DNA of 4,704 nucleotides from a virus (Duplodnaviria; Heunggongvirae; Uroviricota; Caudoviricetes): IMG/VR virus record IMGVR_UViG_2690316115_000002. The stretch is one strand, 5' to 3'. The notes under the pieces are model-generated. The model worked only from the letters and a program-made list of their open reading frames with translations. It had not been told where the DNA came from and made no database searches. Positions 383-450 of this stretch are shown piece after piece (position 1 is the stretch's first letter; the number at the start of each line of letters is the position of its first letter). The translations under genes and the position numbers were made by a program.

Positions 383-450
383 AAGCTGTGTGGCGAAGTA
401 ACCACTCTTAACATACTGACATACTTTTTGCGGACCGCACTAATCATTTT

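Follow-up and report, generated by a model that had tools for sequence, protein, structure and literature searches.

The segment from position 461 to 355 on the minus strand of the window (the whole stretch of 4,704 nucleotides that was analysed, taken from the IMG/VR virus record IMGVR_UViG_2690316115_000002) very probably acts as the Q-dependent cassette for late control in a lambdoid prophage with a Q protein of the Q21/Q933W family (PF06530). The segment has the anatomy of such a cassette, is conserved among related prophages, is homologous to a cassette with a mapped transcription start and matches the geometry of the corresponding region in phage 21. It had been proposed that the spacer behind the Q gene is the late promoter/qut region and that the following hairpin is the terminator that Q must override. 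Homology to the mapped PR' of the Sakai prophage Sp5 and to the cassette of phage 21 supports this proposal. The original prediction pointed to the right place and read it correctly, but it treated the compactness of the region as a problem, whereas this compactness is normal by the geometry of phage 21.

Table 1. Features of the window and of the phage 21 cassette (OL657228, L005)
Feature	Coordinates	Strand	Remarks
DnaC-like loader	4450-3542	minus	
DnaB-like helicase	3545-2145	minus	followed by a small ORF
DUF968/HNH protein	1844-849	minus	
Q antiterminator gene, 126 aa	451-831	minus	Pfam PF06530, PHROG 79
A-rich block over Q stop codon	444-461	minus	read from sequence; about -39 to -56 from the putative start
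Inverted repeat TTAGTGCGG-T-CCGCAAAAA	425-443	minus	perfect core 439-429
Extended -10-like TGT-CAGTAT	413-421	minus	hexamer 418-413
Tandem 8-bp repeat, AGTATGTC followed by AGTATGTT	410-425	minus	
Start-site motif TAAGAGTGG	402-410	minus	putative transcription start A406
Small 5' leader stem-loop GUGGU/GCCAC	390-405	minus	predicted in nearly all relatives
First late terminator tR'	355-382	minus	8-bp GC-rich stem, 5-nt loop, T run
First late-transcript gene, 65-aa ORF, function unassigned	38-235	minus	PHROG 331, E = 1.4e-37
Second intrinsic terminator, 3' of small ORF	34-51	minus	
Phage 21, end of Q21	L005 1632		
Phage 21, -35	L005 1639-1644		
Phage 21, QBE	L005 1647-1662		
Phage 21, -10	L005 1662-1667		
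Phage 21, start site	L005 1674		
Phage 21, pause element TAAGCTG	L005 1675-1681		
Phage 21, terminator	L005 1676-1723		

Gene order and late transcription

All genes of the window are located on the minus strand. The Q open reading frame occupies positions 451 to 846 with its stop codon at 453-451, and translation most likely starts at the ATG at position 831, which yields a protein of 126 amino acids. A 900-nt query from the window was recovered with more than 99% identity in many E. coli chromosomes and with 96-99% identity in prophages and Stx2a-converting phages. In these relatives Q is followed by a small ORF, a DNA methylase gene, three tRNA genes, stx2AB in the toxin phages, nanS-p and the holin gene; stx2AB is found in the sister Stx2 phage (L001) only and is absent from the window-type prophage (L002). 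At the opposite end of the window an ORF on the plus strand (4639-4704) opens with MTKNTRFSPEVRQRA, which we take to be the start of orfA of an IS3-family element (IS629/IS1203-like). This suggests that an insertion sequence abuts the replication-gene end of the prophage fragment.

The 65-aa ORF downstream of the first hairpin is annotated as "hypothetical" in all relatives. It shows a weak match to a TrmB-like helix-turn-helix (E = 0.003), is bracketed by two intrinsic terminators, and has been kept in Stx2 phages of several Q types and deleted in Sp5. Upstream of this ORF, at 267-296 (minus), the weakly promoter-like sequence TTGCTG-17 nt-TATTGG is present, which was not reported by the consensus scan because the last base of its -10 hexamer is a G.

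At least six terminator-like sites are located on the same strand between Q and the holin gene of the window-type prophage, including at least four more beyond the second terminator. The only same-strand match to a promoter consensus over this distance lies within the nanS-p-like gene (L002 9884-9911) and does not exceed the level of shuffled sequences. This combination of many terminators and no promoter above chance ahead of the holin gene indicates that late expression needs processive antitermination beginning near Q.

Conservation of the cassette

For the comparison, 80 loci with a Q homologue were collected from genomes of Enterobacterales, together with 120 viral contigs that contain the leader motif. 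The search was anchored on TAAGAGTG, so its invariance follows from the selection, at least in the viral set; among the independently collected Q-homologue loci that were searched (L001-L086) it is present in 24 of 86. A total of 71 distinct related cassettes from Enterobacterales prophages have in common an A-rich block, an inverted repeat, TAnnnT, G(T/A), TAAGAGTG(G/A) and a hairpin with a T run. Behind TAAGAGTG(G/A) they continue with a small possible 5' stem, ..CAC..(A/G)CTTA and the GC-rich hairpin, and, counted from the T of TAAGAG, the T run begins at a distance of 46-66 nt in nearly all of them.

The cassette is not always adjacent to Q. Two opposite-strand genes separate them in Stx2a_WGPS2, and the gap measures 0.5-2.5 kb in many of the viral (IMG/VR) contigs. 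Cassettes parted from Q by 0.5-2.9 kb of inserted, mostly opposite-strand genes were observed in DLP12 (L006 4680-4800), in WGPS2 (L003 2480-2600) and in many IMG/VR loci, and genes appear to have been inserted preferentially at the Q/cassette junction. Once split from Q, the cassette remains beside the late genes, which argues strongly that it is the late promoter and Q-loading site and not a mere end of the Q operon. This bears on the alternative that the hairpin does no more than terminate the early-right (Q) transcript at the end of its operon and that the late promoter is located elsewhere, for instance nearer to the lysis genes. Such an arrangement would agree with the position of the hairpin directly behind the last early gene and with a spacer that has no consensus promoter, but it is highly improbable: the cassette accompanies the late genes and not Q in DLP12 and WGPS2, the stretch up to the holin gene offers many terminators and the single shuffle-level promoter match, and the homologous site in Sp5 is an experimentally mapped primary start.

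The Q protein

The Q protein of the window matches PF06530 over the whole Pfam model (E = 5.5e-53) as well as PHROG 79 (anti-termination protein Q-like), and is 50% identical to Q933 of Sp5, a member of the same Pfam family. Its N-terminal 80 residues match the Q21 structure 6P18 (also chain 6jnx) with E = 7e-8, and BLAST similarity to Q21 ends at residue 85. Q21 is 36 amino acids longer and carries a B1-B2 loop (residues 105-121) within a helix-turn(loop)-helix, whereas the window protein has a plain turn and no counterpart of this loop. On the tandem Q-binding element (QBE) the B1-B2 loop of Q21 touches the minor groove and the neighbouring protomer. Its absence makes a different DNA-binding geometry plausible for the window Q. 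A clade of 126-aa Q proteins from Stx2a phages has been named QO111:H- (PMC10462455), and judged from this clade the window Q is probably of the QO111:H- type.

The window harbors a 38-aa ORF (447-331, minus; MISAVRKKYV...) across the inverted repeat, promoter and hairpin, and in some distant relatives the Q ORF itself extends across the palindrome in the frame of this ORF (...SAVRKKFV...). The 38-aa ORF was rejected as a gene; its frame differs among relatives and its conservation looks like conservation of the DNA, that is of the palindrome, so that it probably is not a coding sequence.

Promoter elements and transcription start

The spacer between the Q stop codon and the hairpin (450-383, minus) comprises exactly 68 nt, as the original prediction had described it with correct coordinates. 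The earlier remark that no clear sigma-70 promoter is visible agrees with a consensus scan, which returned no match in the spacer or anywhere in positions 1-1000, although with 1.1 matches expected by chance this negative says little alone. The weak candidates TATGTC and TATGTT noticed before are real, and both are situated inside the copies of the tandem repeat at 425-410.

The start site was transferred from Sp5. By dRNA-seq the primary start of Sp5 PR' was assigned to 1,266,203 and the 3' end, at +258, to 1,266,460, and RNase E was found to cut between GU and AUU at +173 (Sy et al. 2020, PMC7547250). Mapping onto NC_002695.2 involved a 142-nt offset between genome versions, with which the start, the RNase E cut and the 3' end all land on sensible bases; the three-way agreement of start, +173 cut and +258 end supports the offset. 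It derives from what we take to be the older stx2A coordinates. The Sp5 start thereby falls on the second-last base of TAAGAG, an A (L004 1346), 7 nt after TATCAT, the RNase E cut is located at L004 1518/1519 and the 3' end (L004 1603) is the last T of a T run. Directly after the Q933 stop codon Sp5 reads ...TTTACGATCGTAAAAATCTGCATATCATGATAAGAGTGGTTACATTGCCACGCAGTCGAACCCGCCGATGCGCGGGTTTTTTT, to which ...TTAGTGCGGTCCGCAAAAAGTATGTCAGTATGTTAAGAGTGGTTACTTCGCCACACAGCTTAAACCCGCCGCGAGCGGGTTTTTTT is the aligned counterpart in the window. The window block TAAGAGTGGTTAC..GCCAC.CAG..AACCCGCCG..GCGGGTTTTTTT is thus homologous to the post-Q933 region of Sakai Sp5, and the two agree at 82% over the first 50 transcribed nt.

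Transferred by this alignment, the transcription start of the window would be A406, which lies 45 nt 3' of the Q stop codon and places the end of the T run at about +49. The proposed core promoter lies wholly inside the spacer, and only the A-rich upstream block overlaps the Q stop codon. The choice posed earlier, between a promoter that overlaps the 3' end of Q and a different role for the hairpin, does not arise, as the core promoter fits the spacer. At the hexamer position (-12 to -7) 65 of the 71 cassettes contain TAnnnT and one more contains TATTGC. The five window-type sequences harbor CAGTAT, in which the A and T of positions 2 and 6 are kept, and a TG one base 5' of the hexamer occurs in the window type only. 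The -35 position of the window is occupied by GTGCGG. Most related cassettes have a stretch rich in A ahead of the inverted repeat, and the block in the window is a possible UP-like element.

Two other starts within the same cassette were considered. TG(A/T)TAAGAG might act as an extended -10 with a start at about A399, or TAAGAG(T) might be a sigma-dependent pause element behind a start at about 411-412 that uses TATGTC (423-418). TG plus one base plus TAAGAG is present in nearly all cassettes with a purine 6 nt past the hexamer, but as a -10 element TAAGAG has a G in place of the near-invariant T at -7, whereas TAnnnT occurs at -12 to -7 of the Sp5-type start in the 65 cassettes mentioned above. 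The phage 21 pause element TAAGCT directly follows its start site, and the phage 21 QBE ends 13 nt before TAAG, an offset that in the window hits the inverted repeat; moreover, the best TAnnnT-like hexamers of the window (TATGTC and TATGTT) are offset from the family position. However, the primary start of Sp5 is the A inside TAAGAG, cross-checked by the +173 and +258 positions, with TATCAT exactly at -12 to -7. A different start is therefore improbable, and A406 is preferred.

With respect to A406, TAAGAGTGG spans -4 to +5. Its TAAGAGT, which contains both AAGAGT and TAAGAG, spans -4 to +3, and no conserved -10-like hexamer was found further downstream of it in the related cassettes. The pause elements of lambda and phage 21 are located at +1 or beyond, so that TAAGAGTGG, which overlaps the putative start, is probably not a canonical sigma-dependent pause element. 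Because TAAGAGTGG is invariant across Q types, it is more likely to be read by polymerase or sigma than by Q, and it probably represents the polymerase/sigma-recognised part of Q loading. A one-mismatch copy of this motif, TAAGACTGG, occurs at 480-488 (minus) in the 3' end of the Q coding sequence; such a second copy is at chance level, as at least two matches were obtained in 26 of 200 shuffles.

Leader RNA and terminator

The terminator stem pairs 382-375 with 369-362 and is followed by an A and a T behind seven T residues at 364-358, three of which belong to the stem. Folded in a 55-nt context the hairpin reaches -18.9 kcal/mol (z = -2.2). Hairpin and T run correspond to +25 to about +49 of the putative start, so that a leader of about 48-50 nt is predicted, and the late genes follow in the full prophage. 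In the predicted small 5' stem (+2 to +17) 94% of the cells in the alignment are paired, with a single co-varying pair only. A search of the whole window against Rfam gave no hit above threshold; the sole overlap with the cassette was Trp_leader with 21.6 bits against a gathering threshold of 41 (E = 0.54), a sub-threshold match that arises because the terminator hairpin drives the alignment.

The Sp5 PR' transcript likewise contains a canonical terminator-like hairpin with a T7 run at +24 to +52 (L004 1369-1397), which is homologous to window positions 382-355. The +258 site was called tR' by Sy et al., and the +24 to +52 hairpin is unmentioned in the main text of that study (PMC7547250). This hairpin, and not the +258 site, may be the actual first tR' of Stx phages. 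A 258-nt transcript accumulates in Sp5 upon RNase E inactivation (PMC7547250), which indicates that the first hairpin is not fully efficient there.

The inverted repeat as a candidate Q-binding element

The inverted repeat of the window is centred about 28 bp upstream of the putative start and covers the -35 position. Perfect inverted repeats with arms of at least 4 bp are present in 68 of the 71 cassettes compared to about 6% of random windows, and their centre precedes the T of TAAGAG by 24 or 23.5 bp. At each of the four innermost positions of the arms, 93-100% of the sequences are complementary, with up to four types of base pair per position. About ten core types were distinguished, namely GCGG-T-CCGC of the window, ACGCGT-ACGC, TTTACGT-ACGTAAA, TTTACG-AT-CGTAAA, TTCGT-T/A-ACGAA, TGTCA-TGACA, TGTTA-TAACA, TGGAA-TTCCA and GTGCG-YTA-CGC. 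The core type maps one-to-one onto the type of the second (recognition) helix in the Q helix-turn-helix; for example, KKSEKAIRIEMQ is paired with GCGGTCCGC, CSDTCIGKRLH with the Q933-type repeat TTTACGATCGTAAA, CSDGTIRKELQ with ACGCGTACGC and CSEGKIRQ.LM with TTCGTWACGAA. This pairing persists where Q and the cassette are kilobases apart and where several repeat types share the identical downstream leader TAAGAGTGGTTACTTCGCCACACAGCTTAA.

These patterns make the repeat at 443-425 a candidate QBE, an assignment that falls just short of an even balance. The correlation between repeat and Q may in part result from physical linkage and not from binding. Against a palindromic site, the sole relative with a characterised structure, Q21, binds to direct repeats in tandem. 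In the competing explanation the inverted repeat would serve a different phage or host regulator as operator, or would provide -35 and spacer context while Q reads, for example, the tandem AGTATGT. The site of Q21 consists of two 8-bp subsites in tandem that lie between -35 and -10 (preprint 10.1101/651190), and the window has a tandem 8-bp repeat at this place, but this repeat is limited to the window type and is absent beside a nearly identical recognition helix (KKSEKQIRIEM, L012), and the B1-B2 loop that mediates tandem binding in Q21 is missing from the subfamily of the window Q. The perfect core is short, with 4-bp arms in about half of the cassettes; however, the arms change in concert over about ten types, and no other variable, Q-type-specific element was found between -35 and the start. 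The correlation between Q and repeat could arise from co-inheritance alone, although the pairing outlasts insertions of 0.5-2.5 kb as well as exchange of the downstream leader. The reading in which the inverted repeat is not the Q site is held to be rather unlikely.

As a Q21-style QBE the tandem AGTATGT repeat (AGTATGTC and AGTATGTT) was rejected; it is missing in L012 and L202, which have the same inverted-repeat core and nearly the same recognition helix. No tandem repeat was noticed in the other cassettes when their sequences were read by eye, and the copy in the window is probably incidental.

A more far-reaching proposal concerns the short-Q branch of PF06530 as a whole, which includes Q933, QO111:H-, QuuD and relatives of 113-146 aa without the B1-B2 loop. 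Members of this branch might use the palindrome about 28 bp upstream of the start, overlapping a degenerate -35, as Q site and load Q onto polymerase that is held at TAAGAGTGG over +1. This proposal is tentative and is held with less confidence than the assignment of the repeat itself. If it is true, the docking geometry would be unlike that of the three solved or studied Q systems, head-to-head Q protomers could replace sigma region 4, about ten natural pairs of Q and site specificity would exist, and the primary tR' of Stx phages would be the +24 to +52 hairpin instead of the +258 site.

Proposed mechanism and significance

According to the proposed mechanism host sigma-70 RNA polymerase would initiate at about A406 from a promoter with a poor -35, using CAGTAT (418-413) and the preceding TGT as extended -10. 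Without Q, transcription would end in the hairpin and T run (382-355) and yield a leader RNA of 48-50 nt. When Q is present, it would dock on the upstream DNA, most likely at the inverted repeat 443-425, and join the polymerase while this is still promoter-proximal, with TAAGAGTGG probably as the part recognised by polymerase or sigma. The modified polymerase would then read through the first terminator, the terminator at 51-34 and several more, and would reach the small ORF, the DNA methylase, the tRNA genes, nanS-p and the lysis genes, and in sister phages also stx2.

The cassette would accordingly be the on-switch of the late genes and, in sister phages that share its Q and spacer, also of Shiga toxin 2a; over the 900-nt query, which includes Q and flanking genes, the identity to these phages is 97% and 95.9%. 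Q of the QO111:H- type serves as an epidemiological marker. No nucleotide-level description of a QO111:H- promoter or Q site was found in the literature, and a comparison of pR' regions (PMC6266700) is without nucleotide-level elements. The small RNA HnrS was considered and is unrelated to the window cassette. The cassette is an ordinary late-control element of known type, in which the palindromic candidate Q site and the invariant start-site motif are two leads of modest interest. The start site, terminator and candidate Q palindrome provide precise targets for work on toxin expression, and the comparative set represents a natural panel of Q proteins and DNA sites for studying how PF06530 Q reads DNA.

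Comparison with known systems

Alignment to Q-downstream regions of other phages, as suggested in the original prediction, revealed homology to the cassettes of Sp5 (Q933) and DLP12 (quuD) and a match in geometry to phage 21. In Sp5/933W and Sp15, which encode Q933, the homology extends from the inverted repeat through TAAGAGTGGTTAC to the first hairpin and T run, and the order of downstream tRNA and late genes is the same. Sp5 has the inverted repeat TTTACG-AT-CGTAAA, a -10 TATCAT and a -35 TTTACG, and this better promoter is found by the consensus scan. In Sp5 the small ORF is deleted and the methylase gene is largely gone. Ahead of a second terminator Sp5 contains the 74-nt StxS_S, which is absent from the window-type prophage. 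A blastn search of the latter recovered no more of StxS_L than its first 49 nt, which make up the leader as far as the first hairpin, and matches to StxS_S were at chance level. With the 74-nt StxS_S missing, the window cassette was rejected as an StxS small RNA as described by Sy et al. (2020).

QuuD of the E. coli K-12 prophage DLP12 is a close relative of Q933. The DLP12 cassette consists of TTTACG-TA-CGTAAA, TATGCT, TAAGAGTGGTTAC and the hairpin and is located about 170 nt upstream of essD. Unlike in the window, it lies 2.9 kb from quuD, with nmpC and IS5 in between. The K-12 region directly downstream of quuD was discarded as comparator, as it is rearranged and the cassette is found 2.9 kb away, upstream of essD.

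Phage 21 provides the closest geometrical parallel. Its Q belongs to PF06530 and is alignable to the window Q over the N-terminal 80 residues (structures 6P18/6P1A), and in both phages the promoter directly follows the Q stop codon and the elements have the same order. In phage 21 all elements from the -35 through the terminator are located within 91 nt after Q21; transcription begins 42 nt past the stop codon of Q and the terminator extends to +50, compared to 45 nt and about +49 in the window. The short spacing that had been regarded as an anomaly is thus normal for the Q21/Q933W family. Both also have a TAAG-containing, -10-like motif at the start site, TAAGCT in phage 21 and TAAGAGT in the window; relative to TAAG, the mapped start of the window's subfamily is 5 nt further downstream than that of phage 21. 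Differences occur in the upstream elements. The -35 of phage 21 is the consensus TTGACA, whereas that of the window is poor, and the QBE of Q21 (ATTGAGCA AATGAGCA) is made of direct repeats in tandem between -35 and -10, whereas the conserved type-specific element of the window is an inverted repeat that overlaps the -35.

The Q protein of lambda belongs to an unrelated family (PF03589), and the lambda region has no sequence similarity to the window cassette. In lambda the leader measures about 190 nt and the pause element is located at +1 to +6; the earlier use of this leader length as a yardstick was wrong for the PF06530 Q family. The logic of PR'-qut-tR' and 6S RNA in lambda is nevertheless shared: a constitutive promoter lies beside Q, the Q site is located between or over the promoter hexamers, and a short terminated leader is combined with processive antitermination.
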